17,290 nucleotides of DNA from positions 1 to 17,290 of the forward strand of contig JBLWVX010000044.1 of NCBI GenBank assembly GCA_048268245.1, in the 5' to 3' direction. The notes beneath the pieces were generated by a model. That model did no database searches. It was not told the DNA's origin and worked only from the letters and a program-made list of their open reading frames with translations. Source of the DNA: Arcobacteraceae bacterium (lineage in GTDB: Bacteria > Campylobacterota > Campylobacteria > Campylobacterales > Arcobacteraceae). The position numbers and the translations under genes are program-made. Positions 443 through 17,290 of the stretch are shown here, one piece after another (the stretch's first letter is position 1; every line of letters begins with the position of its first letter).

Positions 443-549
443 TAATATTTCCTTTAAAAGTGTCCCACTTTGAAAGGGACCTATTTCATTTTATGTCTTC
501 TTTTTTAGCACAAAAATAAATTCTGTTAAAAAGAAGCAAAAAACTAAAG

Positions 550-567
550 AGTGCATAGAAATGCACT
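550..567 (-). terminator. stem-loop between hypE and hypA (possible terminator or mRNA-stability hairpin)
   Basis: agtgcat-agaa-atgcact 7-bp inverted repeat just after the hypE stop, followed by a T-rich run on the minus strand. Confidence 0.4.
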
Positions 568-572
568 TAGTT

Positions 573-1568: not shown

Positions 1569-1584
1569 CTATTTCCTTTACTTT

Positions 1585-2712: not shown

Positions 2713-2722
2713 AATTCTCTAC

Positions 2723-3004
2723 TTATCGATTAGGACAGTTTTCTGCCTCTTCTATTGCTGCAAGCCTGTCATTTTCTTCCATTTTATCTATGATTTCTTG
2801 ATAGACTTTTAATGACTCTAAAGCATCTTCCTCATCTATCTTATTCATAGCAAAACCTATATGTAATAATACATAATCCCCTATTTTTACAGGCTGATCT
2901 ATTAAATCTAAAGAAGCACTTCTTTCAACTCCCATAGTATCAACTACACAAGTGTTCATTTCTTCATCTATACTTTTAATCTTTGAAGGAATTGATAAAC
3001 ACAT
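2723..3004 (-). CDS. hypC: hydrogenase maturation chaperone HypC
   Basis: MCLSIP N-terminus and GDYVLLHIGFA motif; lies between hypB and hypD. Confidence 0.96.
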   Translation of the reverse strand: MCLSIPSKIKSIDEEMNTCVVDTMGVERSASLDLIDQPVKIGDYVLLHIGFAMNKIDEEDALESLKVYQEIIDKMEENDRLAAIEEAENCPNR

Positions 3005-3008
3005 AGCC

Positions 3009-3782
3009 TTATCTCATCTTTCTTTTAAATTCAATCCAATCAATAACTCTTTGAATTGATTCTTTGTCATTAATGTTTACTTCTAAAATATCAACATTTG
3101 GTTTTAGTTTTCTAGCCTCAGATTTCTCTTTTTCTACATCATATTGGAAGTGAGGAAGTAAATCTGTTTTAGTGATCAAAATCAAATCTGCACATCTGAA
3201 CATAACAGGATATTTAGCAATCTTATCTTCACCTTCAGGTACTGATACAAGTACAATATTTAAATGTGTTCCAACATCATAAGAAGCAGGACATACTAAG
3301 TTTCCAACATTTTCTACAAAACAAACATCTAAGTCATCTAAAGGCATATCATGTAAACCTTTATGAACCATAAATGCATCTAAGTGACAAGCTGAACCTG
3401 TTTGAATTTGAGTAGCCTTAATTCCTTTAGCTTTTAATCTATCTGCATCTCTGTTAGTTTCTAAATCACCTTCAACAACACCATATTTAAAGTTTGCTAA
3501 ATCAGACATATGCTCTAAAAGTGTAGTTTTACCACTTCCTGGACTTGACATTAGATTGATACCTAATACACCTTGTTTATCAAAATGGGCTCTGTTATGT
3601 GATGCCTCATGGTCATTTTTATCTAAAATCTTTTTTATTACTGATACTGTTTTACTATCATTTAACTGTGGATTATGATGTAAAGTTTCATGGGCAGCTT
3701 GATGACTTTGGCTATCTCTATGAGAGTGATCATGATCATGATGATGGTGGTCAGTTATTGAACATCCGCAATCTGTACACAT
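3009..3782 (-). CDS. hypB: hydrogenase nickel incorporation GTPase HypB
   Basis: N-terminal CxxCGC, His-rich tract, P-loop SSPGSGKT, CHLDA, ENVGNLVCP and TKTD motifs. Confidence 0.97.
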   Translation of the reverse strand: MCTDCGCSITDHHHHDHDHSHRDSQSHQAAHETLHHNPQLNDSKTVSVIKKILDKNDHEASHNRAHFDKQGVLGINLMSSPGSGKTTLLEHMSDLANFKYGVVEGDLETNRDADRLKAKGIKATQIQTGSACHLDAFMVHKGLHDMPLDDLDVCFVENVGNLVCPASYDVGTHLNIVLVSVPEGEDKIAKYPVMFRCADLILITKTDLLPHFQYDVEKEKSEARKLKPNVDILEVNINDKESIQRVIDWIEFKRKMR

Positions 3783-3925
3783 ATTTGTTCCTTTTATAAT
3801 CTATTTTATTTAATATGAATACTTATTCATTTTTATGTAGTTTAACTCAACTATTATAAATCTATTCTAATTTTATTTATTTCTTATGTATTTTTAGGAA
3901 AAATTAAGATATTTTTGACATATAA

Positions 3926-4254
3926 TTAAATTCTCAAGAACAATCTTTAGCAAATAAAACTACTGAAACTATGACAGAGATTGACAAAGAAGTTAATGCT
4001 ATTAATAAAGCAAATACTGTAAATGTAGCTGTTCAAACTGATAACATTGCTAAACTTGTAGTTGAAAACGCAAACTCAAAAGAGTTTGTAGGTAAAGATG
4101 AAGTTCAGGCAAAAGAATTAACTTCAAGCGATACTACAACAAGTAAAAAGTATGAAGTAGAAACTTCACCAAAACAAAATACAAATAATTCTAATTAACA
4201 ACTAAAGAGGTTAAAGACTCTTAAAATGATGAAGATGAATGGACAAGCTTTTAA
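3926..4254 (+). pseudogene. remnant of a methyl-accepting chemotaxis protein (C-terminal fragment)
   Basis: Frame reads LANKTTETMTEIDKEVNAINKA then NTVNVAVQTDNIAKLVVENANSKEFVGK, resembling the two flanks of an MCP signalling domain without the conserved tip. An out-of-frame NDEDEWTSF* (4225-4254) resembles the NWETF-type tether and follows an in-frame TAA. No sensor or TM region. Confidence 0.7.
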
Positions 4255-4261
4255 GCTTGTC
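4242..4261. terminator. inverted repeat at the end of the MCP remnant
   Basis: gacaagctt-tt-aagcttgtc perfect 9-bp inverted repeat overlapping the relic stop codon. Confidence 0.5.
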
Positions 4262-4287
4262 TTATAAACTATAACTTTGATAAAAAG

Positions 4288-4296
4288 TGTTAAAAT
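4288..4296 (+). promoter_or_regulatory. extended -10 promoter (TGnTAAAAT) for a probable leaderless transcript
   Basis: TGTTAAAAT ends 6 nt before the ATG at 4303; no Shine-Dalgarno sequence in between. Confidence 0.55.
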
Positions 4297-4302
4297 GTTT
4301 TT

Positions 4303-4938
4303 ATGAATTGTAAAAACTGCAACAATAACACTTTTTATCATATTGAAAAAAATTACATTAAATGCAAAAAATGCAATAAAAAATACTCACTAAAAAAACT
4401 ACATACTGATACTCTTATAATAAAAAACTTCTGTGATAATATAAATGCCAATGAATGTAGTAAACAATTAGACCTTAATTATCGTACTGTTAAAAATAGA
4501 TATGATAAGTTGAGATTTAAAATTGCTAAGTTTTTAGAAGAAGAGTATAACAAAAGTATAAAAGACTATAGTGATTATGAAGAGTATTACTACTTCAACA
4601 CAAAACAAAAGCAAAGCAAAAATAAATCCTTATATGAAGCTATAAATATTATGGGCTTTTATTTTGATGAAAAAGTTTATACCCTTTTAATGCCCAAACT
4701 ACCTAAAAGAAATAGTGAAGATACTGAACATTTTAAAGAGTATCTAAACTGGTATAAAATTCACTCTCAAGAATCATATAAAACTAGACTAAAAGAGTTT
4801 TGGCTTTTCTTAGAAGATAGCCTTAGAAAATACAAAGGCTTTAATCAAGACTATTTTTTTTACTATTTAAAAGAGTGTGAGTTTAAATTTAACTATACAA
4901 AAGAAGAGCAAATTAAAATCCTAAATAAGATATTTTAA
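4303..4938 (+). CDS. IS1595/ISXO2 transposase-like protein (Zn ribbon + HTH, catalytic core apparently eroded)
   Basis: N-terminal CKNC...CKKC zinc ribbon, HTH-like NANECSKQLDLNYRTVKNRY, C-terminal YLKECEFKFN resembling the IS1595 family terminal motif. Only 211 aa; no terminal inverted repeats seen. Confidence 0.65.
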   Translation: MNCKNCNNNTFYHIEKNYIKCKKCNKKYSLKKLHTDTLIIKNFCDNINANECSKQLDLNYRTVKNRYDKLRFKIAKFLEEEYNKSIKDYSDYEEYYYFNTKQKQSKNKSLYEAINIMGFYFDEKVYTLLMPKLPKRNSEDTEHFKEYLNWYKIHSQESYKTRLKEFWLFLEDSLRKYKGFNQDYFFYYLKECEFKFNYTKEEQIKILNKIF

Positions 4939-5334
4939 TTACTCCTTATCAAAACTATCTACAATAATTGCACCCATTGAAGCAGGCATTGTAATAACTA
5001 TCAATCTTTTTATAGCAATAATTGGCTCGGTTAGTAAAGGTAGTTTATCAATAGATATTAAAACTAAGGCTACAACTAAGGCTGATATTATATATGCAAT
5101 TATAATTCTTAATATAAAAACAAAAATCCTATGAACAACCTGCCCTTGAAAAACACTCTCATATGCAAAAAGTGCTAAAAAACTTACTGATAATATAAAT
5201 ACTAATGTAAGATTAGAAAAAGGAAGACTTTCACTAATTCTCCAAGCTTCTTCAGAAAATGAAATTGGTACAGCAAAAGCAAAAGAGCCTATTGCAATCT
5301 GCCCAATATCTTTCATATCAATATTTAAATTCAT
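4939..5334 (-). CDS. DUF2391-like integral membrane protein
   Basis: Four hydrophobic segments; GSFAFAVPISFSEEAW and PASMGAIIVD motifs recalled from this family. Confidence 0.7.
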   Translation of the reverse strand: MNLNIDMKDIGQIAIGSFAFAVPISFSEEAWRISESLPFSNLTLVFILSVSFLALFAYESVFQGQVVHRIFVFILRIIIAYIISALVVALVLISIDKLPLLTEPIIAIKRLIVITMPASMGAIIVDSFDKE

Positions 5335-5335
5335 T

Positions 5336-6160
5336 TTAAACCTTCACTTGGTTTTTACCATTACTTTTTGCTTCATAAAGAAGTTCATCTGCACTTTTAA
5401 TGATTTGTTCTTCATCTTTTTTAGAGTCCTCATTACTACTTACACCTATACTTACTGTAATTTTCATATCATCTGCATACTCTTTTTGAATATTTACTCT
5501 TATTTTATCAGCAATCTTAAAAGCATCATGTTTTTTTGTATCTGGAAAAATTACACTTAACTCCTCGCCTCCATACCTAAAAGCAATATCCATACTTCTA
5601 ATACTTTGTTTGATAATCTTTGAAATTTTTGTAAGAACCTCATCACCTTTTTGATGTCCATAAGTATCATTTACATCTTTAAAATCATCAATATCAATCA
5701 TTATAAAAGAAAAAGCACTATTTTTTCTTCTCGCTTTTTCAAAAACTTTTTTTATAAAAATATTTAAAACCTCTCTTTTATATAAAGAGGTTAACTCATC
5801 AATTGTTGCAATTTTTGAGATTGATTCAAACTCATCCTCTAACATAACTTTCATATCTTCTGTAATATTTTTTATGTTTTCTATATAATCTACACTTGCT
5901 ACATTTATCCCAACAGGTCTATTTAGAACCTTTTCTAAACTTTTCATATGCGTAACTAATCTATTCCAAGTATCTTTGGCTTCTTTTTCATCTAACTTCT
6001 TATGTATTAAAACAGATATGATTTTTGAATAAGGATTATTTATTCTTTTTGCAAACTCTTCAATACTATTAGCATTATAAGCTAGTTCATTAATCTTTTT
6101 AGTATCTAGATTTTCTAACTTTTCATTTTTTATAATTGTTTCAATCTGTTCACTACTCAT
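5336..6160 (-). CDS. GGDEF-domain diguanylate cyclase
   Basis: DELTSL, DIDDFKDVNDTYGHQKGD, RxxD I-site (RSMD), RYGGEEL active site, ADELLYEAK; soluble N-terminal domain. Confidence 0.93.
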   Translation of the reverse strand: MSSEQIETIIKNEKLENLDTKKINELAYNANSIEEFAKRINNPYSKIISVLIHKKLDEKEAKDTWNRLVTHMKSLEKVLNRPVGINVASVDYIENIKNITEDMKVMLEDEFESISKIATIDELTSLYKREVLNIFIKKVFEKARRKNSAFSFIMIDIDDFKDVNDTYGHQKGDEVLTKISKIIKQSIRSMDIAFRYGGEELSVIFPDTKKHDAFKIADKIRVNIQKEYADDMKITVSIGVSSNEDSKKDEEQIIKSADELLYEAKSNGKNQVKV

Positions 6161-6723
6161 TTATGTAACCTTTTTTATCTATTTTATAAACCAAAATTCT
6201 CATTAGTAATTTTATTCTTATTTGCATAAGAATTATCTAATTTAAGACTTTTTTTTAATAACTCTAAATAATAATTATGAATTGTATCAAATTCTGATTT
6301 AGGAGGTATTTCTTTTATACTACTAGCATTTAAAAAAACAAATTATCAATTTAAATCACTACAATAGTCTTTATATCTATTTTTGTTAATTATATCATTA
6401 ATATAAAAAAACAAAAAAAACAAGCTAAATTAACTGAAAAGATTGAATACCACAAAAAAACAATCAAATCTATTCCATGCAACAGAAAAAATAAGTTCAG
6501 GGAACCTTGACTTTAAAATAAAAGCAAGAAAATAAAGGTGTAGAGTTTACAATAAAAATAAATCTTAGTTAAAGAAATATGTATGTACAATATCTGCTAA
6601 TATATATAAAACCAATAATGAAAAAATCACTTTGTTTGTATTCATAAAAATTCCTTACTATATATTTTAGCAATTCTATATTAACTTTTCGTAAACAGTA
6701 AATACCTATAACACCGATGTTAG

Positions 6724-7770
6724 TTATATACTGTGTCGATTTTGTGCATTATCTGATATATCAAATAACACTCTTTTTTCTTTTCTTCTTGGAACATACT
6801 TATAATACTTTTGCAAAGTTATAGATGGATTTTTGTGTCTTAACATAAAACTTACCCATTCCAAACGCTCACCCATAGAAAGCTTCAAACTTGCAAAAGT
6901 ATGTCTAGTTTGATGAAAACCTCTATATTCAATATTTAAAGATTTTAAAATCTTTTTATAATAATATGTTAAATCACAAGTACTATTAAATCTATTTCCA
7001 CGAGCTGTATAAAAAACATATTCTCTTAATCCAGTTCGCTGTAATTGATTTTTTAAAAAAGGCAGTAACTCCTCAGGTAAATCTATAATAGCTTTAGAAC
7101 TAAAAGTCTTAGGTAAATCTTCAATACCATTCATTATAGTTTTATTAACATCTATTTCCATTTTTTTGAAATCAATATCAGTCCATTTTAAAGCTATGAT
7201 TTCCCCTGCTCTCATACCAGTAAGTAAAGCTACTGCAATTAAATTTTTAATATGTGAATCATAATTTAATAAAAGTTTTAACTCATCATAATTAAAAGGA
7301 TTTATCTCATATTTAGATTGGAATTTAGGATTAGATATTTCATTAAATGGATTACTTTTAATTACTCTATTTAACAATGATTCTTCAAATACATCTTTTA
7401 AAATTGCCTTAGCTATTCTAAGTGTACCAGTACAAGGTAAAAACTTATAAAAATCTTTTAGAAATAAAGGTGTAACTTCTACAACTGTAATATTTTTAAA
7501 GTATGGTTTTATTCTAGTTTTTAGAATAGAATTATAACTTCTTAAAGTACTATGTTTTAAAGTCTTACTTTTTTCTTCCATTACATTTTCACAATGTTCT
7601 ACTACACTAATTAAAGTATTATTGTTTATTCCAAATTTGTTAAAGAACTCATCATTTTTATAGTATGACTTAACTAATTTTCTATTATTTGTTGTATCTT
7701 CTAGTTTAGTTGATATTCTACGACCATTAATACGAACATATAATTTACCATTTCGATTATAAAATGTCAT
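6724..7770 (-). CDS. tyrosine recombinase / phage integrase
   Basis: Catalytic set: R (TGMRAGE), K (LPKT), HxxR (HQTRH), H (MLRH, where LGH is more usual), Y (KYYKY). N-terminal arm-binding-like and SAM-like regions. Confidence 0.93.
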   Translation of the reverse strand: MTFYNRNGKLYVRINGRRISTKLEDTTNNRKLVKSYYKNDEFFNKFGINNNTLISVVEHCENVMEEKSKTLKHSTLRSYNSILKTRIKPYFKNITVVEVTPLFLKDFYKFLPCTGTLRIAKAILKDVFEESLLNRVIKSNPFNEISNPKFQSKYEINPFNYDELKLLLNYDSHIKNLIAVALLTGMRAGEIIALKWTDIDFKKMEIDVNKTIMNGIEDLPKTFSSKAIIDLPEELLPFLKNQLQRTGLREYVFYTARGNRFNSTCDLTYYYKKILKSLNIEYRGFHQTRHTFASLKLSMGERLEWVSFMLRHKNPSITLQKYYKYVPRRKEKRVLFDISDNAQNRHSI

Positions 7771-8054
7771 GCGATTTCCCTTTTAAATTGTTCTATCGCA
7801 CTTTCTATAAATACTATTTTATGCTTACCTTGCTTAATTTCTTTTCTATAGTGAACATTTAGTTTAAATCTACCATCATTTATATAATTATAAATAGTTG
7901 GTGGTGTCTTATCTAAATATTCAGCTACATTTTTTACTTTTGTTAAATCTCTTTTTTTTCTAAGTTCTTGGTTTAACATTTGAACTTCTTTTTTTAACTC
8001 TATTACTTCATCTAATAAAGATGGTATTAAAGATAATGTTTCTTCTATTGTCAT
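7767..8054 (-). CDS. excisionase-like HTH DNA-binding protein
   Basis: VKNVAEYLDKTPPTIYNYINDGRF winged-HTH pattern after a short coiled coil; ATGA overlap with the integrase. Confidence 0.75.
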   Translation of the reverse strand: MTIEETLSLIPSLLDEVIELKKEVQMLNQELRKKRDLTKVKNVAEYLDKTPPTIYNYINDGRFKLNVHYRKEIKQGKHKIVFIESAIEQFKREIA

Positions 8055-9241
8055 TTTTTATCTCTGTATTTATCTTTTAAAACAATCTTATTATGATTAG
8101 TTCCATACTTAGGAATTGAATTTAAAAAATTATGTGCTTTTTCTGCACCATTAGACACATATGTAAACTCTGTAGTTTGAAGCTCTTTAATAATTTGTTT
8201 AGCTTTTGAGTAAGATACTGTGTCACAGTCCATATCTGTATATTCTATATATATACTATCACTTATTTCAATATGTCTTATATCTCTTTTTGTTTCTTCT
8301 TTAACTGGTTGATCCAGGTTCTTTGATTCTTCATATTGTTCTTTAAATGATTTAGGTTTTTCATGAGTTAAATTTTTTAAATCTTCTAATTCTTTTTTTA
8401 ATTGTTCATTTTCTTCTTTTAACTTTTTATTTTCATTTTGAAGTTTTACTATCTCATCAATATCTTCTATAGGAACTATTGAACCAGTACCAATCTGAAT
8501 AAATGTTTTATTTAACATATCATCTTTTATTATCTTAACTTCTTTATCATTTTTGTTAATTTCTTCTTTATGCTCATCAGGTTTTGTATTAAAGTTTGAA
8601 ACTTTTTCTTCTTTTTTTCCCGCGGGAAAATTTTGTTTATAATCTTTTATTTCATCTCTTGTAATTTCTTCATTTACATATTTATCATAGATTTCACATT
8701 GTAAATCTGTATCTTTAATTCTTCCTATTTCTTCAAGAACTGAAAGAGGAACAGTTAATCTATCAGCTTCTAAAAGTGTTACGATAGATGGGTCTAATCT
8801 TAAAGAAGAAAAACATTTAGAAATAAAAGTTTGTGATTCGCCTATAGCTCTTGCTAAATGTTCTTTTTTCTTATATCTTCCAGAGTTCCACATTTCGCCT
8901 ATTTTTTTCGCATACTCAAATGGTGTTAAATCTTGTCTTTGTCTTGCTTTTACAAGAGAAATTTCATCTATTTGAGCTTCATCAAAATCAAATATTTGTA
9001 TTTTAATTGTTGTATGATTTAATTTATTACAAGCTTTAAATCTTCTCTCACCATCTACAATCATATAACCCTTATGAAATTTAACAACTGCAACAGGTTC
9101 TAATAATCCATGTATCTTAATAGAACTTGCAAGCTCATCTAAATTATTAAAAGTTTTTCTTGGTTGATTTTCATTTGGATATACTGTTTTGATATCCACC
9201 TCTAAAAAGTCTTGTAATTGTGTATCCATTAATTTATTCAT
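8051..9241 (-). CDS. ParB/Spo0J-family protein (CTPase domain + HTH) with long C-terminal extension
   Basis: PNENQPRKTF, LASSIKIHGLLEPV and IVDGERRFKA (GxRR motif); HTH KEHLARAIGESQTFISK; C-terminal coiled coil LQNENKKLKEENEQLKKELEDLK. Confidence 0.9.
   Translation of the reverse strand: MNKLMDTQLQDFLEVDIKTVYPNENQPRKTFNNLDELASSIKIHGLLEPVAVVKFHKGYMIVDGERRFKACNKLNHTTIKIQIFDFDEAQIDEISLVKARQRQDLTPFEYAKKIGEMWNSGRYKKKEHLARAIGESQTFISKCFSSLRLDPSIVTLLEADRLTVPLSVLEEIGRIKDTDLQCEIYDKYVNEEITRDEIKDYKQNFPAGKKEEKVSNFNTKPDEHKEEINKNDKEVKIIKDDMLNKTFIQIGTGSIVPIEDIDEIVKLQNENKKLKEENEQLKKELEDLKNLTHEKPKSFKEQYEESKNLDQPVKEETKRDIRHIEISDSIYIEYTDMDCDTVSYSKAKQIIKELQTTEFTYVSNGAEKAHNFLNSIPKYGTNHNKIVLKDKYRDKK
8615..8630. 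promoter_or_regulatory. perfect 16-bp palindrome, candidate parS-type ParB loading site
   Basis: TTTTCCCGCGGGAAAA, GC-rich core in very AT-rich DNA, inside the ParB gene (codons F205-K209); similar in form to parS (TGTTTCACGTGAAACA) and the Noc site (TATTTCCCGGGAAATA). Confidence 0.65.
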
Positions 9242-9243
9242 AA

Positions 9244-9477
9244 TTAACCCCTTTTATTAAATTTATTAACATACTGCTCAAATCTAGTTTTTAGATGTTC
9301 TTTTGCTTCATCTATAGATTTAAAACTTTGAAATCTTGTTTCTTTAAATGTGTAATCAAAAAATACAAATGTTGCATTTTGAGAAAGTCTTATTTTTCTT
9401 ATTTGAAAAACTATTTTGTCTTTTAAAATATAGTAGATTGTAGTTTCATCATTTTTTAGTGTTAGTACATTTAGCAT
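9244..9477 (-). CDS. hypothetical phage protein (77 aa)
   Basis: Fills the gap between rep and the ParB gene with 1-2 nt spacing; its 3' end carries the AAGGGG RBS of the ParB gene. Confidence 0.7.
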   Translation of the reverse strand: MLNVLTLKNDETTIYYILKDKIVFQIRKIRLSQNATFVFFDYTFKETRFQSFKSIDEAKEHLKTRFEQYVNKFNKRG

Positions 9478-9478
9478 A

Positions 9479-10786
9479 TTAAAATCCTAATTGTGAAGCT
9501 GTTTTAACTACATTCATTGTTTTAAACTCACCAGTATCTATGTCTATATATTCTTCCTCTACTGTATATAATTCATCACTAGTTAAAGGCTGTATTTCTA
9601 CAGTAGTTAAGAGATCTCTTTTAATCATTTCATTTTGAGTAACTAGATAGTGCTTATTATCAATTACATTAGTATCTAAGCTAGTTAGTTCTCTATAATA
9701 TCTTTGAAGTTGGTAATCATTTAATTTTGATGGAATTACTGGAACTAACATGAATCTATTTTGGCTATCATTGAAAGTATATTTTTCAAACTCACTTACA
9801 TAAACTTGTAGAGCTGTTTTATAATCTTCTTTTTTATATGCTAGTTTGAAAGTATCATTTTTCTTAATTCTACTATAGATAATTGAGTCAGTATTTTTAG
9901 CCCATGATATAACTTCATCTACTGTATCATTCTCAATATCGTACTTCATGTACATATGCATATTACCATCAAATAAAGTTTGAATTTGATTCTTTTCCCA
10001 CATTTTAGAAGCTTCTAAAAGTGAAGTATTAGAGGGTAGTGAGTGTCTTACTTTTCTATAAACACCTAGTGTAATTGAAAGACTTCTTGATGTTAAAAAT
10101 CTTCTAACTTTGTTTTTAATATACCAGTATGAAGCGTATTGTAAAGAGTTATCATTCTCATTTTTGAAAGTTTTTGTGATGTATTTCATGATATATGCAA
10201 CAGCACCACCTGCTGACTTATACCATGTGTATCTAAAGTCTAAAGACTTTTTATTGTTTCCCCATCTTACTTTGTTTGTAAAGTATTCATAAAACTTATT
10301 TTTTACTTCTAAGATATAATCTTTTGGTAAGAATAGCATAGCGTGCATATGTGGAACACCGCTTTTATGAGGTTCATATACTCTAAAATATATTAATCCC
10401 TTTCCATATTCTTTTTTCATTTTTCTAAATACATTTAATCCAGTAAATCTATTCCAAATCTGTGTCATATCTTTTGCAGTTTGATTAGGCTTAATTAGTA
10501 AGTTACCTTTAGAGTCCGTTTTATGATACTTTGCAGGAGCTGTAAAAGTTAAAAATACTGGTTTTAAATTCATTTCTTTTGCTAAGTCAAAAATAGAGTT
10601 AATTCTATTATTCATTTCTGCAAAATATCTTTTAGGATTTATTACAGCAGAGTGTATAAAGTCTAAAGCATCTTTATTTTCATTTTCAAACTCAAAGTTT
10701 GAAAGATTGTTTTTTATCCAGTCTTTTTGAAACTGTATCTTTTCATCTATATATTTGATATCATATTTGCTTAATCCGTATTTCAT
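9479..10786 (-). CDS. rolling-circle replication initiator (HUH endonuclease, two-tyrosine phiX174 A / P2 A type)
   Basis: Motif 1 FLTFTAP, motif 2 EPHKSGVPHMHAM, motif 3 AVAYIMKYITK; AAGGGG RBS upstream. Confidence 0.9.
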   Translation of the reverse strand: MKYGLSKYDIKYIDEKIQFQKDWIKNNLSNFEFENENKDALDFIHSAVINPKRYFAEMNNRINSIFDLAKEMNLKPVFLTFTAPAKYHKTDSKGNLLIKPNQTAKDMTQIWNRFTGLNVFRKMKKEYGKGLIYFRVYEPHKSGVPHMHAMLFLPKDYILEVKNKFYEYFTNKVRWGNNKKSLDFRYTWYKSAGGAVAYIMKYITKTFKNENDNSLQYASYWYIKNKVRRFLTSRSLSITLGVYRKVRHSLPSNTSLLEASKMWEKNQIQTLFDGNMHMYMKYDIENDTVDEVISWAKNTDSIIYSRIKKNDTFKLAYKKEDYKTALQVYVSEFEKYTFNDSQNRFMLVPVIPSKLNDYQLQRYYRELTSLDTNVIDNKHYLVTQNEMIKRDLLTTVEIQPLTSDELYTVEEEYIDIDTGEFKTMNVVKTASQLGF

Positions 10787-10835
10787 TTATTACCCCTTTA
10801 AAATCTATTACATAACTATTATAAAAGTAATCAAG

Positions 10836-10894
10836 GGGAGCGACTCAAACAGACAAGCTGTTTGCTTTCGCTCCCTCTGGGGCGCGGTGCGCCC
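10836..10894. other. GC-rich double hairpin, candidate double-strand replication origin
   Basis: gggagcga(10836-43)/tcgctccc(10868-75) encloses caaacag(10846-52)/ctgtttg(10858-64); then gggcgc-ggt-gcgccc (10880-94); lies directly upstream of rep. Confidence 0.6.
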
Positions 10895-10912
10895 ACTTTT
10901 ATCCCCTATTAA

Positions 10913-11092
10913 CTATTTGAATAAGAAAGGTGCTTTAATAACAAGTTCACCCATTCTTAATCTAATTTTTTTCATTCTTTTTAAATCTTCTTTTGATTTA
11001 TTAGATTTACTTTCCAATTGTTTGTATTCTTTTAATAAAGTCTCTTTTTCAATAAATAAAATAAAAAGATTTGTTAATGTATTTGTTTTCAT
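10913..11092 (-). CDS. hypothetical basic 59-aa protein (not in ORF track)
   Basis: Hand translation MKTNTLTNLFILFIEKETLLKEYKQLESKSNKSKEDLKRMKKIRLRMGELVIKAPFLFK*; AAGGA RBS; ATGA overlap with the upstream ORF. Confidence 0.7.
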   Translation of the reverse strand: MKTNTLTNLFILFIEKETLLKEYKQLESKSNKSKEDLKRMKKIRLRMGELVIKAPFLFK

Positions 11093-11421
11093 AAATAAAG
11101 TCCTTTATAATCTTCAAATTTGAAGATGAACTTATTAAAGTAGTTTATTCTAGAATGCAAATCTTGATTAAATTCTTGTGTAAAGACATAAAAATTATCA
11201 TTTATTTGTTCACTCATTCTTTGCATATTTAAATACTCATTTTTAATATCTTCAAAGAACTCTTCATCTGTTCTTGGGTCATTTTGTGCTTCTTTTACAA
11301 TTTGTCTTACTGCTACAGTTGATAATAGTAATCCTGCAAAAGGTAATAAAGGTGTTGGAATATCAACTGAACTAATCAGATTATGAGCTGAACCTATATA
11401 GTTTTTAATTTTTTTTATCAT
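11089..11421 (-). CDS. hypothetical 110-aa phage protein with one hydrophobic segment
   Basis: AAAGGA RBS, co-oriented directly after the secretin gene; hydrophobic LLPFAGLLLSTVAV. Confidence 0.7.
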   Translation of the reverse strand: MIKKIKNYIGSAHNLISSVDIPTPLLPFAGLLLSTVAVRQIVKEAQNDPRTDEEFFEDIKNEYLNMQRMSEQINDNFYVFTQEFNQDLHSRINYFNKFIFKFEDYKGLYL

Positions 11422-11433
11422 GTTATATCCTTT

Positions 11434-12669
11434 CTAATCACAAAAGTTTAAATACTTACAAGTATCAAACTCTCTTAAAATTAACGATTCATTCTTATTA
11501 TTGAAATTATCTAATACATTAAAATCTATAATCTCAATAAGCACAGTTGTTGTAGTTGTTTTATCATCTAGTTTTTTAGATTTAAAAAAATTTCCTATTA
11601 CTGGTATTGATGAAAGTAAAGGTACATTTTTATAAGTTTCAATTTTTGAATTGTTATTGATACCTGATAATAAAAAGTATCTTTTATCTTTATCTAGTGT
11701 AATATCTTGTTTGATTGTTTTCTTTGTAGTAATTGGAAGATTGTTATCATTACTTAGTAATTGTGAGTACACAAAATCTAAATCTAAATTTACTAAATCA
11801 TTTAGTATTTTTGGTTTTATATTTAGTCTTAATCCAACATCTTTATATTCAAATGAATTTACTTCTTTAGTTTTAGTATCTTCTATTTGATTACTAGTTG
11901 TTAAGTATGGTATGTTTTGAGAACTATCTAAGATAAAATCTTTATTATGTTCTAGATTTATTATTGTAGTTGTAAGATTAGTAGTAAAAGAGTTTGTATC
12001 TAAAAACTTTATTACACTATTTACATTATCATAGTCAGCTTTATTACTGATATTTATTGCAGAACCTAAAAATATATCAAATACAGCTTTTTGTCCTTTA
12101 TTTAAATTTAAATCTATTAGACTTTCATGCTCTTTTAAATCATTTAAATTTGTTTCAAAAATTGAAAGTTTTATTTTCATCTTATTTGGAAGAACATCTA
12201 AAAGCTCTATATTTCTTTTTATTTGTGTATATTTTTCATAAGTGCTATCTATTGCTAACTTATTTGCTTGTTTTAAATATGTATAATCAACTTTATAAAG
12301 TTTACAAATAGAGTCAATATCTTTATAGTTTAAAAAGTTCAAATGGATATATCGAACCTTAGTTTTTTTCTCTTTTTCTTCATGCTCTACAGTATCTATT
12401 TTATTTATATAGTAAATACCATTTTTAATACTAATATCATAATCATTAGCTTTTAGAACTGTAGTTAAAAATTTATAATTGTTTTGAGTTGGTTTATAAA
12501 ATACTGTAATATCTTTCATCATCTTATCATTGATTACAAAAGGCTTATCAATATTTGATAGTACATCAACTGTAAAAAGTTTTAAATTTGTTTCTAAGTA
12601 GTTAAAATCATTTGCTTGTAAAGCTGTCAGTAACGCTAGTGAACAAATCGTTTTCTTCATTGTTTTCAT
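11434..12669 (-). CDS. secretin (pIV/GspD-like) phage extrusion channel
   Basis: Signal peptide, YKDVGLRLNIKPKI and VPLLSSIPVIGNFFKS secretin signatures. Start moved from TTG 12687 to ATG 12669, which follows an AAGGGG RBS. Confidence 0.9.
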   Translation of the reverse strand: MKTMKKTICSLALLTALQANDFNYLETNLKLFTVDVLSNIDKPFVINDKMMKDITVFYKPTQNNYKFLTTVLKANDYDISIKNGIYYINKIDTVEHEEKEKKTKVRYIHLNFLNYKDIDSICKLYKVDYTYLKQANKLAIDSTYEKYTQIKRNIELLDVLPNKMKIKLSIFETNLNDLKEHESLIDLNLNKGQKAVFDIFLGSAINISNKADYDNVNSVIKFLDTNSFTTNLTTTIINLEHNKDFILDSSQNIPYLTTSNQIEDTKTKEVNSFEYKDVGLRLNIKPKILNDLVNLDLDFVYSQLLSNDNNLPITTKKTIKQDITLDKDKRYFLLSGINNNSKIETYKNVPLLSSIPVIGNFFKSKKLDDKTTTTTVLIEIIDFNVLDNFNNKNESLILREFDTCKYLNFCD

Positions 12670-13678
12670 TTTTACCCCTTTCTTCAAATAAATTAAATTT
12701 ATCTATTGTTTTTATTGCATACTTGTTATTTACTACTTTTAAAAACTTTGTTTCATATTCATTATTTAAGATATAAAATAAGTAAGATTTTTCATATACA
12801 TTCCCATTTATAAAGCAAAGGTTTTTATTACAAATCATTTCAAAGTATTGTGAGTCTTTAAAATCTTTAGTTGGTGTTGTTGCTGCTCTTTTAGGAATGA
12901 TTGAATTAGATTGATTTTTGTTGTTATCATTTACAACATTTTCAGGTTCAGAAGAAAAAGATTTAATAAAAAAATATCCTCCAATAATAAGAAATGCAAA
13001 GATACCAAGTGATATAAGTAAATAGTGAAGTACTAGTGATTTTTGAGTATTGTTATCACCTGAATGATAAAGTTTAAAAGACTCTTTGATAATTGGTATC
13101 TTTTTAGTATCAGCTTGTTGAGTTTTAAACATTTGATAGCCAATAAATTTATTATAAATCATACTAGTATTAAAAAGTTTTCTTGATGCTGGTCTTGCCT
13201 TATAGAAGAACTCAGTAAATACTTTATAGTTTTTGTGAACTAAAGGAATATCTTGAGTAATTAAAATAATATCTTGATAAAAGTGTCTATGATAGGATAA
13301 CCACCATTCTAAAGTATCATCATGTTTTTTTAAGTAATCTTGGCACTCATCAATTACAATAAGTGTATTTACAAATTTAGTATCTGTAATTTTATCTACT
13401 TCTTCTATTAATTCATTATCTGTAAAACCTCTTTTTTTACACATATGTAAGTGTTTAAGAATTTTTTTGAATTCATCAAAATCAAATTGATAAGTATTTT
13501 CAAATTTATCAAATTTAAATTCATTTAAATTAGTTAAGCAAGCTTTATATTGAGTTTTTGAAATTGCATATTTTTTATATTTTGAATATTTTCTATTTCT
13601 AAGAAAATTAACAATAATATAAAAAACACCATAATAACTTTTTCCACTACCTGGTATACCAGTAACAAACTGTATCAT
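12608..13678 (-). CDS. Zot-like / pI morphogenesis ATPase
   Basis: Walker A GIPGSGKS at the N-terminus, Walker B LIVIDECQ, HRH and ILITQ motifs, single TM helix then periplasmic tail; overlaps the secretin gene. Confidence 0.93.
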   Translation of the reverse strand: MIQFVTGIPGSGKSYYGVFYIIVNFLRNRKYSKYKKYAISKTQYKACLTNLNEFKFDKFENTYQFDFDEFKKILKHLHMCKKRGFTDNELIEEVDKITDTKFVNTLIVIDECQDYLKKHDDTLEWWLSYHRHFYQDIILITQDIPLVHKNYKVFTEFFYKARPASRKLFNTSMIYNKFIGYQMFKTQQADTKKIPIIKESFKLYHSGDNNTQKSLVLHYLLISLGIFAFLIIGGYFFIKSFSSEPENVVNDNNKNQSNSIIPKRAATTPTKDFKDSQYFEMICNKNLCFINGNVYEKSYLFYILNNEYETKFLKVVNNKYAIKTIDKFNLFEERGKNENNEENDLFTSVTDSFTSK

Positions 13679-14085
13679 TTTGTAAGCCTTGCAAAATCAA
13701 CAATAGAGTTAGTAATGTAAAAATATACAGATATTAAAAATCTTGCACCAACTGCAGTTAAATATGTAATTAAAATCATTACTAAAGAAGGACCCACTAG
13801 ATTCCAAGCATCAATAATTCCTATGTTATAAGCTATAGCACTAAATACTATAGTTACACAGTCATTAACTCCACCGGCAGTACCATTAGCTAAACTTTCA
13901 ATGATATTTATAATATTTTTAATTGATTCATACATAGTAAAAGTTACAGTAAGCATTGTAGTTACAAAAGAAATTACCATACCAAAAAGTAAAGCTCTAG
14001 CAGTTAAAAATAAAATACCTAAAGCAATATCTTTACCAAACTTACCTACTAAAAAAGTTCCTACTGTTGCTACTGGATTAATCAT
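13675..14085 (-). CDS. pVI-like minor coat membrane protein
   Basis: 136 aa, largely hydrophobic, between pIII-like and pI genes, ATGA overlap with pI. Confidence 0.7.
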   Translation of the reverse strand: MINPVATVGTFLVGKFGKDIALGILFLTARALLFGMVISFVTTMLTVTFTMYESIKNIINIIESLANGTAGGVNDCVTIVFSAIAYNIGIIDAWNLVGPSLVMILITYLTAVGARFLISVYFYITNSIVDFARLTK

Positions 14086-14097
14086 TTAAAAACTCCC

Positions 14098-15768
14098 TTA
14101 AAATAATCTATTTGCTAAAGATATAACTTGAACTGAAATTTGCCATAAAGCAATCATTAAAATAATTTGAAAAAACAAAACAACAATTGGTTTTAATGTA
14201 GACATTGGTGTAACAAAATCAAAAGAAACTTTACTACCAAATATATCAAGAGATAAACACTCTTCTAAATTTGGATTTTTAGAATATGAAATAGGTGTAA
14301 ACTCTAAACCACCTTCAAAAATTTGTTTATAATCATTTACTTGTGTTTCAAGTTGATTAAATGAAGATTCCATATCACTAAATAATGTTGTAAAATCTGT
14401 ATTTATCTTGTCAAACTTAGTATTTAAATCATTTAATTTTTCTTCATCAGCAGTATTTAAAGAGTTCTTTATATCTTCTAAAGTTTGATTTGTAGTATCT
14501 AATTTACTATCTATACTTTGAGTATTGTTATTTATAGATGTAGCAGTACTATTTAAGCTATCCAAAGAGCTTTCAAGATTACTATTATCATTAATTGGTT
14601 GTTCTACTTCTTGGGGTGGTATTGGGTCAGGATTAGTAGTATCACATAAACTAGTATCATCATCATAAATATCAGCAATTCCATCTAAATCACAATCTTC
14701 ATGACAAATAGGTGAACCAGTTAAATCTGTACCAGTTTCAATAGTACCTATAGGACATTCAAAACCTTTTACACAACCATTGTCACCACTTGTATAATTA
14801 ACTTCATCACAACCTCTATCACATGTAAAAGTAGTATCAGTACATTTTAAACTAGGAGCGCCGTCACCACAATCACTAACATAATAATCTAATTCACATG
14901 GTCTATCAGTTGTACCAGTTCCAGTACCGTCATCAGGATTTGAAGTATCACCACCTCCACCAGTACTAGTACCAGTTCCACCTTGTGCAGGAGTTCTTGT
15001 ATCTTGATTTATAGTGCCATCTGGATAATATGATACATAAGTACCATCACTATAGTCAGTTCTTGAACTTCCATCTAAATTAGTAGTAGTAACAGAACCG
15101 TCAGCATTAACTACTATACTATCAACAATAGTTGGGTCAATAGGCATAGTATTAGTATCAGGGTTTCCATCACTACTATAATCTATATGACAAATGGGAT
15201 TACCAAATAAATCTGTACCAGTTTGCACAGTTCCTGCAGGACAAGTAATTTGTGGTTGTGAAACTGGTAAACAAAATTGTTCACCCTCTACTGTTCCAAG
15301 TTCAAAACCTTCACCACATAAAGGAATACCATCAGGGTCAAAACCAGTTGTCCCCTCGCCTAAATCGGTACATACACCATATCTATAATCTTGATTAGAA
15401 GAACAAGAACATGTATATCTTCCATCTAATCCAACTGTACATGTTTCATTTGTATCAGGATTTACATAACTAGGTGGTTCAGGCTCAACATGTCCATCAT
15501 CGATAGGATGACAAGATGTGTAAACTGTAGAATAAGAAAGTCTAAATTTCCAATAACCATCAGCAGAACTATAAGAACATGAACCGACAGCATATTTTGA
15601 ATTTGAAGTATATGTTTCTCTATTAGAATTACAATGCGATTCACTTGTTCCAGACTTATAGACAACAGTAGTATAATATCTATCAACTTTAAGTTCTTCA
15701 CCCTCAATACAAGTAGCAAAAGAAAATGTATTTATAAATAATATTAAAAATATTGATTTTTTTAGCAT
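14098..15768 (-). CDS. pIII-like adsorption protein
   Basis: Signal peptide, Cys-rich domains, Gly/Thr/Asp linker, coiled-coil region, C-terminal TM anchor; sits before pVI and pI. Confidence 0.85.
   Translation of the reverse strand: MLKKSIFLILFINTFSFATCIEGEELKVDRYYTTVVYKSGTSESHCNSNRETYTSNSKYAVGSCSYSSADGYWKFRLSYSTVYTSCHPIDDGHVEPEPPSYVNPDTNETCTVGLDGRYTCSCSSNQDYRYGVCTDLGEGTTGFDPDGIPLCGEGFELGTVEGEQFCLPVSQPQITCPAGTVQTGTDLFGNPICHIDYSSDGNPDTNTMPIDPTIVDSIVVNADGSVTTTNLDGSSRTDYSDGTYVSYYPDGTINQDTRTPAQGGTGTSTGGGGDTSNPDDGTGTGTTDRPCELDYYVSDCGDGAPSLKCTDTTFTCDRGCDEVNYTSGDNGCVKGFECPIGTIETGTDLTGSPICHEDCDLDGIADIYDDDTSLCDTTNPDPIPPQEVEQPINDNSNLESSLDSLNSTATSINNNTQSIDSKLDTTNQTLEDIKNSLNTADEEKLNDLNTKFDKINTDFTTLFSDMESSFNQLETQVNDYKQIFEGGLEFTPISYSKNPNLEECLSLDIFGSKVSFDFVTPMSTLKPIVVLFFQIILMIALWQISVQVISLANRLF
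14695..15243 (-). repeat. duplicated 21-aa Cys module within pIII (copies at 15181-15243 and 14695-14757)
   Basis: CPAGTVQTGTDLFGNPICHID vs CPIGTIETGTDLTGSPICHED, 15/21 identical; share the 17-nt string taaatctgtaccagttt. Confidence 0.85.
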
Positions 15769-15777
15769 GATTCATTC

Positions 15778-15900
15778 CTAGCTTTTAGCTAAAGAAATAG
15801 CACCAAAAACTGGAACTAATATCAAAGATATATTAAAAAAAATACTAAAAAAGTAATCAAATACTACATCATTTGTAAGTTCTATTATGATTAAATTCAT
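15778..15900 (-). CDS. small membrane protein, pVII/pIX-like minor coat candidate (40 aa, not in ORF track)
   Basis: MNLIIIELTNDVVFDYFFSIFFNISLILVPVFGAISLAKS*; ATGA overlap with the upstream ORF; ends 9 nt before the pIII start. Confidence 0.75.
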   Translation of the reverse strand: MNLIIIELTNDVVFDYFFSIFFNISLILVPVFGAISLAKS

Positions 15901-16043
15901 TTCTTACCACCTATTGAAACTGCAAGATATACAGCAAAGAAAAGCCATGTAAAACCTATTAATGACCCAGTAAATGCCATCATGAAGTTATAATCTTGTA
16001 AGTTCATATTTAAATAATTTGCTATATCTTGACTTGAATTCAT
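15897..16043 (-). CDS. small membrane protein, pVII/pIX-like minor coat candidate (48 aa, not in ORF track)
   Basis: MNSSQDIANYLNMNLQDYNFMMAFTGSLIGFTWLFFAVYLAVSIGGKK*; AAGGGG RBS; single TM with basic C-terminus. Confidence 0.78.
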   Translation of the reverse strand: MNSSQDIANYLNMNLQDYNFMMAFTGSLIGFTWLFFAVYLAVSIGGKK

Positions 16044-16045
16044 TT

Positions 16046-16168
16046 TTAACCCCTTGCTACTGATATTGCTTTATTAATAGCCCATAGAATCGAACAATAA
16101 GCCAACAAAGAAGAAGAAATAATAAGCATATTTTCTTTTGAGATAAAAAAAGTTTCTAAAACTTCCAT
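16046..16168 (-). CDS. coat-protein-like small membrane protein (40 aa, not in ORF track)
   Basis: MEVLETFFISKENMLIISSSLLAYCSILWAINKAISVARG*; AAGG RBS; acidic N-terminus, TM helix, basic amphipathic C-terminus. Confidence 0.72.
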   Translation of the reverse strand: MEVLETFFISKENMLIISSSLLAYCSILWAINKAISVARG

Positions 16169-16205
16169 ATTTAAACCTTATTTTTTAAAACTTAAATATA
16201 AAAAT

Positions 16206-16253
16206 TTTATTAGAGTGAGGTTATTTAATTAGTTCTTTGCTCACTCTAATAAA
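16206..16253 (-). terminator. 14-bp perfect inverted repeat after the major coat gene (terminator or processing hairpin)
   Basis: tttattagagtgag (16206-19) / ctcactctaataaa (16240-53), 20-nt loop; same position as the central terminator after gene VIII in Ff phages. Confidence 0.6.
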
Positions 16254-16264
16254 TGAATTTATGA

Positions 16265-16384
16265 TTATTTACTAACCATTCCAATAACTCTTTTAACACC
16301 CCAAATACCACCATAGGCACCAATAATTAAACCACCAACAGTCATAACAGCAGATGTATCAAATGCTAATGTAGTTAAATCCAT
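16265..16384 (-). CDS. major coat protein candidate (pVIII-like, 39 aa, no signal peptide; not in ORF track)
   Basis: MDLTTLAFDTSAVMTVGGLIIGAYGGIWGVKRVIGMVSK*; strong AAGGGG RBS; acidic N-terminus, Gly-rich TM, basic C-terminus; followed by a strong hairpin. Confidence 0.82.
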   Translation of the reverse strand: MDLTTLAFDTSAVMTVGGLIIGAYGGIWGVKRVIGMVSK

Positions 16385-16400
16385 AATTTTCCCCTTGTTT

Positions 16401-16625
16401 GCTCTATCCTAGAGCCTAATTTTAATTTTGTAGAATGCACAAAAAATATACACTCTATCAAACCAAAATCGTTACAAATCGCCTTATATTGCTTCATAGG
16501 TTTAGAAAGGTTATAAGATTAAATTACAGCCTTTCGCCCTATCGGTTGAACGCACATTCTTAAATTACTGGAGGATATTTTTACTTATCGAACTTAGTTT
16601 CATTCCAGTAATTTAAAAATCGTGC
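16401..16625 (-). other. structured intergenic region with four successive hairpins
   Basis: Stems at 16552-16625, 16496-16542, 16427-16462 and 16401-16415; two use G-T/U pairs that form only on the minus strand. Confidence 0.65.
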
Positions 16626-16629
16626 AAGA

Positions 16630-17022
16630 TTACTTTTTATCTACTATTACTAAGTTCGCGTCATTTATTTTATATGTTGTTTTCTCTTTTGTATTAAGAA
16701 TTGGTGCTAAAATTTCTTTACCTCTTAAAGGTTCATAGATATTTAGTTTATTGGCAATATCATCTTCACTTTCACAAGGAATAGAAATTACTTCTTGAAT
16801 AACCTTATCAACTAGTCTGATATTGCCACCTAACTCTTTTTCAACTTGTACCGTGTTCATAAAGAACAGTTTTACACTATGACCGTATTTAAACGCTCTG
16901 TTATTATCATCAACACCCTCACCTGCAACTGTAAAGTCTACATTGTCTAACTTTCCATAGATGAAAGTTCCATGACCTTGTAATTGTGGTGTTTTAATTG
17001 TTTCTAAATTTTTGTTTTCCAT
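16630..17022 (-). CDS. putative ssDNA-binding protein (pV-like)
   Basis: 130-aa soluble, beta-strand-rich sequence with aromatic and basic residues; first gene of the structural cassette; AAGGGG RBS. The call is mostly positional. Confidence 0.55.
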   Translation of the reverse strand: MENKNLETIKTPQLQGHGTFIYGKLDNVDFTVAGEGVDDNNRAFKYGHSVKLFFMNTVQVEKELGGNIRLVDKVIQEVISIPCESEDDIANKLNIYEPLRGKEILAPILNTKEKTTYKINDANLVIVDKK

Positions 17023-17054
17023 TTTTAACCCCTTGTTAAATTATATTTATTTAC

Positions 17055-17117
17055 TTACCCCTTTAAACTAACGAATCAGGCGGGGTAAAGTGCCTAATCC
17101 GAGTGAGATAACTCACT
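17055..17117 (-). promoter_or_regulatory. hairpin plus H-type pseudoknot in the 5' leader of the pV-like gene
   Basis: Minus strand: AGTGAG-TTAT-CTCACT, then CGGATTAGGC-ACTTTACCCC-GCCTGATTCG-TTAGTTTAAA-GGGGTAA; loop TTACCCC pairs with downstream GGGGTAA. Confidence 0.65.
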
Positions 17118-17251
17118 AGAAAGAACTTGTAAAAGTGCTTTATAGAAAATTAATAAGTTAGTTATTGAAAATTTTTAAAATAATGGAATTAATATTTATA
17201 TAAATATATTAATATCTAAGTGTATATACCCCTTTTAATATTTTGATTTTT

Positions 17252-17260: not shown

Positions 17261-17290
17261 TCTTATAATTAAAATAAATTACAAATATTT

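Follow-up and report, generated by a model that had tools for sequence, protein, structure and literature searches.

The stretch of DNA analyzed here (hereafter the window) is the entire 17,290-bp contig C44 of a low-GC Arcobacteraceae bacterium assembly (2.68 Mb, 57 contigs, 99.3% complete), and it contains an integrated filamentous phage, or inovirus, that carries a gene for an orphan ParB/Spo0J-type protein. The prophage genes all lie on the minus strand, from 6724 to at least 17157, and are arranged in the order orf130, four open reading frames (ORFs) encoding 40–48 residues, the pIII-like and pVI-like genes, Zot/pI, the pIV secretin, orf110, orf59, a GC-rich hairpin region, Rep, orf77, ParB, an Xis-like helix-turn-helix (HTH) protein and a tyrosine integrase. 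The element, known here from genes alone, was assigned to the inoviruses on the basis of matches to Zot (59 bits), secretin (76 bits), Rep (73 bits) and PHROG pIV (134.6 bits), the presence of small ORFs of coat-protein size and a genome of ~10 kb encoded on one strand. parB (8051..9241, minus strand), identified by its ORF and by Pfam and TIGR00180 matches, codes for 396 residues. Upstream of it are the gene for a rolling-circle Rep of the GPA/G2P type (9479..10786, minus strand) and orf77 (9244..9477, minus strand), a small backbone gene without a family match. Downstream are the gene for the Xis-like HTH_17 protein (7767..8054, minus strand), whose start overlaps the parB stop codon (ATGA), and that for the tyrosine integrase (6724..7770, minus strand), the terminal gene at the left prophage end, both recognized by family matches. 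Because the junctions are gaps of 1–2 nucleotides (nt) or ATGA overlaps, rep, orf77, parB, xis and int are read as one operon, of which rep is the first gene.

The product of parB has the N-terminal architecture of its family. ParB_N, the fold that binds cytidine triphosphate (CTP), spans residues 12–98 (8948..9208, minus strand; Pfam, 60.6 bits, cut-off 26.3), HTH_ParB spans residues 103–200 (8642..8935, minus strand; Pfam, 24.7 bits, cut-off 22.6), and the NCBIfam model TIGR00180 (parB_part) gave 110.4 bits (cut-off 58.45). Box I (QPRK) and box II (GERR) correspond to residues 26–29 and 64–67, respectively, and box III is K98-A-R-Q-R102, which aligns with ENIQR or ENLQR in the relatives and the host ParB. 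The recognition helix bears the signature S-x-(F/Y)-(I/V)-S-K-(C/A)-F, which is common to the phage clade described below and unlike that of the host ParB. Among proteins of solved structure, the best match is the parS-bound ParB of H. pylori (4UMK, E = 1.2e-22). An earlier note on this DNA had described a ParB-type protein with QPRK, GERR and an HTH, and this description was borne out by ParB_N, HTH_ParB and TIGR00180, all above their cut-offs; the ORF is predicted to encode a genuine ParB-family DNA-binding clamp protein. Two other identities were considered and dropped, namely a ParB/Srx-type nuclease, since an HTH is present and the TIGR00180 cut-off was passed, and a Noc-like membrane tether, since the protein scored below the TIGR04285 cut-off and has no basic amphipathic N-terminus.

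About 192 residues (205–396) lie C-terminal to the HTH. The same note had reported about 190 such residues with a coiled coil; the length stands, and what was found of the coiled coil is a heptad-rich, coiled-coil-like segment at residues about 262–291 (8369..8458, minus strand), with sub-threshold matches only (DivIC, ZapB and bZIP). This segment is a possible dimerization element. It is followed by a C-terminal domain of ~80 residues (311–391; 8069..8311, minus strand), delimited by its homologs, which include stand-alone proteins. The domain family comprises 48 representative clusters among 1.84 billion proteins, and most of its members are stand-alone proteins of 65–117 residues. Stand-alone homologs of the last ~75 ParB residues, 71–76 residues in length, were also observed in other Arcobacteraceae genomes (L145:9935-10156, L146:9945-10166, L147:9978-10193 and L148:4433-4663). 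The domain matched no Pfam family, showed no detectable similarity to the host ParB by hhalign (probability 0.1%), and, when residues 225–396 were searched against the ESM Atlas, yielded no usable match. The linker after the HTH is an insertion hot spot, with 90–125 extra residues in the C31 protein described below and in the protein clusters P0002, P0004 and P0009, and none in the window copy. The inserts of 90–125 residues in the linkers of P0002, P0003, P0004 and P0009 (alignment columns about 270–400) differ between relatives, and P0003, a C31-type protein, carries the precomputed Pfam label PF28159.1.

Three genes with a ParB_N domain are present in the genome: that of the chromosomal parA-parB pair on contig C20, the window gene and a gene on contig C31. 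The last belongs to a second inovirus prophage (locus L004, about 150–12050) with an identical gene order, and it encodes a 486-residue ParB. The C44 and C31 prophages are mostly unalignable as DNA, and their Rep, Zot, secretin and integrase proteins are 27–36% identical. However, they have in common a block of orf77 and parB with 94–95% nucleotide identity, whose edges are no more than 30 nt from the ends of these genes, as well as the orf110 gene (92%), the 5′ part of the pIII gene (87%) and a 139-bp non-coding sequence 5′ of orf130 (88%). The occurrence of four near-identical blocks in otherwise divergent prophages suggests that filamentous prophages residing in the same cell have recently exchanged modules by recombination. 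Between the C44 and C31 ParBs, the ratio of non-synonymous to synonymous substitution rates (dN/dS) is 0.064 over the 232 codons of the N-terminal half (27.5 synonymous versus 8.5 non-synonymous differences) and 0.29 in the C-terminal part. The CTP-binding fold and the HTH are under strong purifying selection.

We surveyed the host family for related prophages. Zot-family matches were obtained in 71 of its 184 genomes; those set aside were mostly weak partial matches in frames of ~650–870 residues, together with G188:C131 (E = 4.7e-6) and one 60-residue fragment. The resulting set consisted of 32 places outside this genome (E ≤ 7.1e-8), and up to 20 kb around each was searched with tblastn. 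Rep and Zot homologs were present in all 32 loci, and a secretin homolog in 27. Five ParB queries (E ≤ 1e-3) detected no ParB in any of the 32 and recovered both prophages of this genome as positive controls; ParA was likewise found in none of the 32. ParB carriers amount to 2 of the 34 prophages of the lineage, both in one genome. ParB is thus outside the usual gene set of this inovirus lineage, in keeping with the earlier note, which had placed it outside the classical inovirus set. A near-twin of the C31 prophage occurs in a congeneric genome (L210; Rep 89%, Zot 91% and secretin 93% identical), where orf77 is followed by xis after 35 nt and there is no parB. Because orf77 leads straight to xis in L210, parB is taken to occupy an insertion slot between these two genes. 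orf77 without ParB was also found in L205 and L208. On this distribution, parB is an accessory gene of the inovirus prophage.

A candidate parS lies within the gene itself. The search for palindromes common to both prophages returned only one, the perfect 16-bp palindrome TTTTCCCGCGGGAAAA, which is located at 8615-8630 in the window, where it is in the parB frame and codes for F205-P-A-G-K209, and at 9727 in C31. At up to 2 mismatches, TTTTCCCGCGGGAAAA has two copies in the 2.68-Mb genome, one per inovirus prophage, and its core CCCGCGGG likewise has two genome copies only. Shuffles of the window gave an expectation of 0.01 matches to the palindrome at up to 3 mismatches. Two codons of the palindrome are rare in the host: across 1,058 long host ORFs, CCC accounts for 2.8% of Pro codons and GCG for 2.1% of Ala codons, and the joint probability of the palindrome codons under host codon usage is P = 1.6e-4. 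In the ParB-family loci of the relatives, the site conforms to the consensus wTTTCCCnnGGGAAAw, in which TTTCCC and GGGAAA are nearly invariant. There were 49 such sites in 393 kb of 22 ParB-family loci, 19 of which had at least one. The corresponding counts were zero for the 32 inovirus loci lacking ParB (534 kb), one for 79 other ParB loci (1.32 Mb) and zero for 28 distant viral ParB loci (455 kb). Among 21 loci of the relatives, a site is located no more than 301 nt upstream of parA in 12 and inside parB at equivalent codons in 9. Canonical parS-like sites of the host, sought with a consensus sequence, were found on contig C8 only and are unlike TTTTCCCGCGGGAAAA. An exact 14-mer of the site occurred in at least 100 stretches in IMG/VR; family ParB was present in 11 of the 80 examined, neither Zot nor Rep was found nearby in any of these 80, and many of the matches are high-GC chance matches. 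Given the strong enrichment of the motif near the genes of the closest ParB relatives, TTTTCCCGCGGGAAAA is likely the parS of the clade to which the window ParB belongs. With a parS copy inside parB, the gene would bring its own loading site when it moves.

The closest relatives of the protein are found in tailed phages. Only eight protein clusters (P0002–P0009) among 5.8 billion proteins are more than 40% identical to the window ParB, and the remaining matches are chromosomal ParB or Noc types with ~30–36% identity over the N-terminal half. The KARQR form of box III is confined to a clade of four clusters in that collection, among them P0004, which is 68% identical to the window protein. In IMG/VR, the 19 closest loci are 39–49% identical over residues about 2–230 and lie on contigs of 16–47 kb. 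Zot was found in none of 28 records examined (27 from IMG/VR and one Sulfuricurvum metagenome-assembled genome). A ParA of ~200 residues is encoded within 800 nt upstream of ParB in all 21 close loci (L006 and L086–L105), with most of the gene pairs overlapping by ~20 nt. ParA is also upstream in all 5 additional loci obtained by sampling 401 genomes of the order and in 12 of 15 metagenome loci; the other three contigs begin ~230–300 nt before the ParB match and leave no room for parA. Two genomes of the host family contain tailed temperate prophages (L143 and L144) with ParA upstream, a CI-type repressor and a DnaB-type helicase, and the ParBs of both share the ~80-residue C-terminal domain of the window ParB. 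L143 additionally encodes a CII-like regulator, and terminase and portal genes are present in L144. In the Campylobacterota tailed temperate phages (L086–L104 and L143), a small parA-parB operon is accompanied by 2–5 dispersed copies of the palindrome. Several of the tailed-phage relatives are classed as integrated proviruses, and L143 resides in a complete chromosome (G067). Elsewhere, INPHARED yielded 72 matching phage records, all with less than 60% identity and none covering 80% of the protein, and L006 (41%) was the only close match in the genome contig collection.

A maximum-likelihood tree was built from the N-terminal 205 residues of 45 rows, from which sequences without QPR or shorter than 150 residues, as well as L102, a duplicate of L092, were omitted. 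The window ParB, the C31 ParB, P0002 and P0004 formed a clade with 100/100 support on a long stem (0.5), with P0005 and P0006 as its sister, and the whole group was nested within the tailed-phage ParAB clade, which was split from the other rows with 100/99 support. Seven distant viral ParB loci (L106–L112), in which no ParA was found with the queries used, grouped with ParBs of chromosomal type. We conclude that the inovirus captured parB from a parA-parB-parS cassette of Campylobacterota tailed temperate phages.

No such ParA accompanies the inovirus gene. The earlier note had reported no ParA in the window, and a Pfam search of its 19 ORFs indeed found none. Since the window is the whole contig, a parA just outside it could be judged only from the remaining assembly: tblastn of the whole genome with phage-type ParA gave no match, and the 12 CbiA-family places that the genome contains all lie on contigs other than C44 and C31. 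The claim that there is no cognate parA beyond the window therefore holds for this 99.3% complete assembly. The protein itself has lost features connected with ParA. The LG(R/K)GL-type ParA-binding motif, as defined in PMC12704722, is absent from the window ParB and present in the host ParB. The N-terminus of the window ParB is 10–12 residues shorter than those of its ParA-coupled relatives, and only four open codons precede the parB start; what is missing is the N-terminal peptide GK(T/V)(R/K)T(S/T)G of the ParA-coupled phage relatives, a basic peptide that is probably the ParA-activating one.

Box III has changed as well. The window clade has K98-A99 where all other relatives have Glu-Asn. 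Because P0005 and P0006 have the short N-terminus and yet retain ENIQR, the order of events suggested is that loss of the N-terminal peptide preceded the change in box III. In B. subtilis ParB, the E111Q substitution abolishes CTP hydrolysis while CTP binding, gate closure and loading are kept, and the mutant protein shows wider spreading around parS and impaired ParABS function (PMC8494293). The CTPase activity of the window ParB is doubtful because its box III lacks the Glu whose substitution by Gln kills hydrolysis in B. subtilis; CTP binding may be retained. Hence the intact CTPase postulated in the earlier note is upheld for boxes I and II and not for box III, in which KARQR lacks the hydrolytic Glu.

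Classical partition is unlikely because the motor ParA is lacking, and for the same reason a role in organizing or regulating the phage's own DNA is probable. We favor, with modest confidence, the reading that the window ParB is a ParA-independent clamp that would be loaded at parS and act as a regulator or organizer of the phage's own DNA. Dimers would load at the in-gene parS, and the binding of CTP via boxes I and II would close them into clamps. Hydrolysis is probably poor, judging from box III, and the clamps would be long-lived. They would slide along the 10-kb phage DNA, either as replicative form or as prophage, and act without ParA on the rep-orf77-parB-xis-int operon and the replicative form, in a manner more like that of KorB or BisD than that of a partition adaptor. 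Spreading of the clamp over rep-xis-int is plausible, because the likely parS sits in parB, inside a tightly packed operon. ParB would be synthesized when the replicative form exists, because parB is co-transcribed with rep, xis and int. Membership of the ParB family, orphan and accessory status, descent from tailed phages, the link between the motif and this ParB family and purifying selection are all shown by the data; parS binding, nucleotide behavior, clamp sliding and biological role we infer.

Several points weigh against this reading. parB is dispensable for the basic regulation of rep-xis-int, because 32 related prophages are without ParB. The parS assignment is one of co-occurrence only, and the prophage has a single parS-like site at up to 3 mismatches, whereas KorB and BisD rely on several sites and on partner proteins, none of which is seen here. 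The Lys/Ala change in box III may abolish nucleotide binding or alter its specificity, and orphan ParBs include proteins with a divergent box III as well as binders of ATP or GTP, according to PMC12704722. Clamp closure is only assumed, because the C-terminus has no detectable similarity to the canonical dimerization domain. Finally, the nearest relatives, P0002, P0004, P0005 and P0006, are known here as protein clusters alone.

The alternative that survives best, one we nevertheless consider unlikely, is that the ParB-parS pair segregates or stabilizes the replicative form, either through the host ParA or the structural maintenance of chromosomes (SMC) complex or by tethering it to the parS of the integrated copies, whereby it would hitch-hike on the chromosome. 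A centromere-like site and its binding protein retained under purifying selection would suit such a role, as would the co-transcription of parB with rep, xis and int, through which ParB is made when the replicative form exists. The host supplies a chromosomal parA-parB, and the two identical chromosomal parS copies are possible anchors. However, the borrowing of the host ParA, which the earlier note had entertained, is not supported: the window ParB has neither the host-type LG(R/K)GL motif nor the phage-type GK(T/V)(R/K)T peptide, the latter having been lost. Against replicative-form partition in general, the candidate parS differs from the canonical parS-like sites of the host, which were found on contig C8 only. 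In addition, replicative forms of rolling-circle elements are usually multicopy, two co-resident phages with one common centromere would be partition-incompatible, and the 32 related prophages manage without ParB.

A bolder conjecture, for which we hold out only slender hope, is that parB constitutes a single-gene centromere whose naturally hydrolysis-dead, ParA-deaf clamp either jams the ParABS systems of tailed phages sharing its parS or tethers the phage's own replicative form to chromosomal parS. If true, this would mean that a single-stranded DNA virus employs a ParB-parS pair independently of ParA, for exclusion or for hitch-hiking at division.

Interference between phages, considered by itself, seems to us still less probable. 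Here, the inovirus ParB, unable to activate the ParA of tailed phages with the same host range and poor at hydrolysis, would bind the parS of these phages and jam their partition complexes or silence the DNA around their 2–5 sites, resulting in centromere-based exclusion or incompatibility. The motif of the window is identical to that of the tailed-phage clade, in which there are 2–5 sites per ~20 kb; the lost functions are exactly those of ParA coupling; and this genome contains no tailed prophage with the candidate parS. Defense and moron genes are often accessory and horizontally exchanged, and parB is likewise an accessory gene, one that has moved horizontally between the two prophages of this cell. 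On the other hand, PADLOC returned no match for the window ParB, and parB lies in the rep-xis-int operon with no obvious lysogeny promoter. Moreover, many tailed relatives exist as integrated proviruses and may not depend on ParABS, and no experimental precedent is cited for interference of this kind.

That parB is a mere passenger, a recently transferred and decaying piece of a tailed-phage cassette with no role in the inovirus, is the least probable explanation and would be a surprise: its rarity (2 of 34 lineage prophages, both in one genome, and four KARQR-clade clusters among 5.8 billion), the loss of the partner and motifs, and the variable middle region with indels of 90–125 residues would fit, but both copies have intact frames, the 232 codons compared give a dN/dS of 0.064, the palindrome has been kept perfect despite rare codons, and the clade persists at 68% identity with KARQR in P0004.

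The remainder of the window is occupied by host genes and by the other parts of the prophage. The host genes (hypA–E, a GGDEF protein and others; ORF list and Pfam) extend over 101-6160. Between the hyp operon and a gene for a DUF2391 membrane protein is an ORF of 211 residues (4303-4938, plus strand) with an N-terminal Cys-x2-Cys pair motif and a weak C-terminal match to IS1595 transposases (22 bits, cut-off 75). In the prophage, the assembly genes (11434..13678, minus strand) comprise those for the pIV secretin (11434-12687) and Zot/pI (12608-13678). The structural block (13675..17022, minus strand) comprises the pVI-like gene (136 residues), the pIII-like gene (556 residues), the four ORFs of 40–48 residues and orf130; homologs of its genes are present in related prophages, and we infer their functions from position only. 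The pIII-like gene contains a 93-nt direct repeat (14665-14757 and 15151-15243, 73% identity) that encodes two Cys-rich modules, CP.GT..TGTDL.G.PICH. The gap between orf59 and rep (10787-10912) is a GC-rich structured region in an otherwise 25% GC phage; it includes the hairpin GGGCGC-ACC-GCGCCC at 10880-10894 and a longer hairpin, GGGAGCGA...TCGCTCCC, and may be a terminator, an origin or a packaging signal. The non-coding block 5′ of orf130 (17019-17157), 88% identical to C31:421-560, has a GC-rich stretch at 17072-17094 and an inverted repeat at 17101-17116 and ends 133 nt before the contig end; it is a possible regulatory or attachment region. Direct repeats of att type sought between 6100-6800 and 17000-17290 were AT-rich 10-mers only; the contig stops at 17290, which leaves the right end of the prophage undefined. 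The scan for promoters and terminators was uninformative, with fewer promoter-like sites than in shuffles, and an Rfam scan of the window returned no family. Seven sequencing runs matched, each with no more than 9% of the sampled words and none listed as RNA; four of them offered short metagenome contig pieces only, with no useful joints.

ParB clamps are now viewed as general CTP switches, and orphan ParBs of mobile elements are common and almost all uncharacterized; about 1% of parB homologs are prophage-encoded, and the box III of orphans is often divergent (PMC12704722). That paper has no occurrence of "inovir" or "filamentous". Full-text literature searches for inovirus or filamentous phage with ParB, and for orphan ParB with phage, gave no study of a filamentous-phage ParB among the matches listed; PMC10432266, one of the papers listed, deals with linear plasmid-like phages. 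On the other hand, supplementary file 6 of Roux 2019 lists the inovirus protein family iPF_01231, with 7 sequences annotated "ParBc (6) KorB (1)" in the category Segregation, along with one other Segregation family of 2 sequences; "ParB" is absent from the main text. ParB-like genes are rare in inoviruses, and they are already on record, as are, in general, orphan ParBs in prophages. What is new is the derivation of the gene from a tailed-phage ParABS cassette, the location of the likely parS within it, and the concerted loss of ParA, the N-terminal peptide and the box III Glu/Asn. Its rarity, with one genome and four protein clusters, is the limitation of the system. Its appeal is compactness, as it consists of one gene and one 16-bp site within it, with clear ParA-bearing ancestors and three traceable losses. 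A centromere and its binding protein can, on this evidence, travel as a single-gene cassette from tailed double-stranded DNA phages to filamentous single-stranded DNA phages, two unrelated types of virus. A clamp that controlled rep-xis-int or the replicative form would be a new kind of regulator in inovirus biology.

Among known systems, the closest counterparts are the ParBs of the tailed phages (L086–L104, L143 and L144), which are 39–51% identical to the window ParB over residues about 2–220 and have the HTH signature in common with it. Their loci have the motif wTTTCCCnnGGGAAAw, as in the window, and in 9 of 21 it is placed inside parB at equivalent codons. They differ in having an upstream ParA (~200 residues), the GK(T/V)(R/K)T peptide and ENIQR, all three of which the window ParB lacks, and in having 2–5 dispersed sites in contrast to the single site of the window prophage. 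iPF_01231 can be likened to the window ParB by annotation only, both being ParB-fold proteins encoded without a ParA in inoviruses. Placement of parS inside the gene is also known in B. subtilis, in which a parS lies inside spo0J. Chromosomal ParB/Spo0J proteins (4UMK; B. subtilis Spo0J, 6SDK) resemble the window protein, which passes TIGR00180, in combining ParB_N with an HTH, in the QPR and GERR motifs and in a 16-bp palindromic site. The chromosomal ParB of the host is ~32% identical to the window ParB, from which it differs in its LGRGL motif, its ENIQR box III, an unrelated C-terminus and other parS-like sites.

Noc is an orphan ParB paralog without the ParA motif, like the window ParB, and the structures 7NG0 and 7NFU match at ~70 bits. 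TIGR04285, the Noc model, gave 112.6 bits over residues 14–240, far below its cut-off of 315; the window protein is without an evident basic amphipathic N-terminal helix, and the taxonomic context differs. KorB is a distant relative (8QA8; 37 bits, E = 2e-8), and its family model NF010406 gave 23.8 bits against a cut-off of 640. KorB has a ParA partner, IncC. KorB of the IncP plasmid RK2 (PMC11790492) and BisD of ICEclc (PMC12409273) are ParB-fold CTP clamps of mobile elements; they are loaded at sites resembling parS and control distant genes. BisD operates within an integrated element and possesses an additional domain that ParB lacks (PMC12409273). KorB works with the clamp-locking proteins KorA and TrbA (PMC11790492) and BisD with BisC (PMC12409273), and no partner of the KorA/TrbA or BisC type is seen for the window ParB. 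Both KorB and BisD hydrolyze CTP. The hydrolysis-dead laboratory mutant B. subtilis ParB(E111Q) (PMC8494293) is changed at the position altered in box III of the window ParB, which has Lys where E111Q carries Gln, and an adjacent replacement of Asn by Ala. The inovirus protein may provide a natural counterpart to this laboratory mutant.

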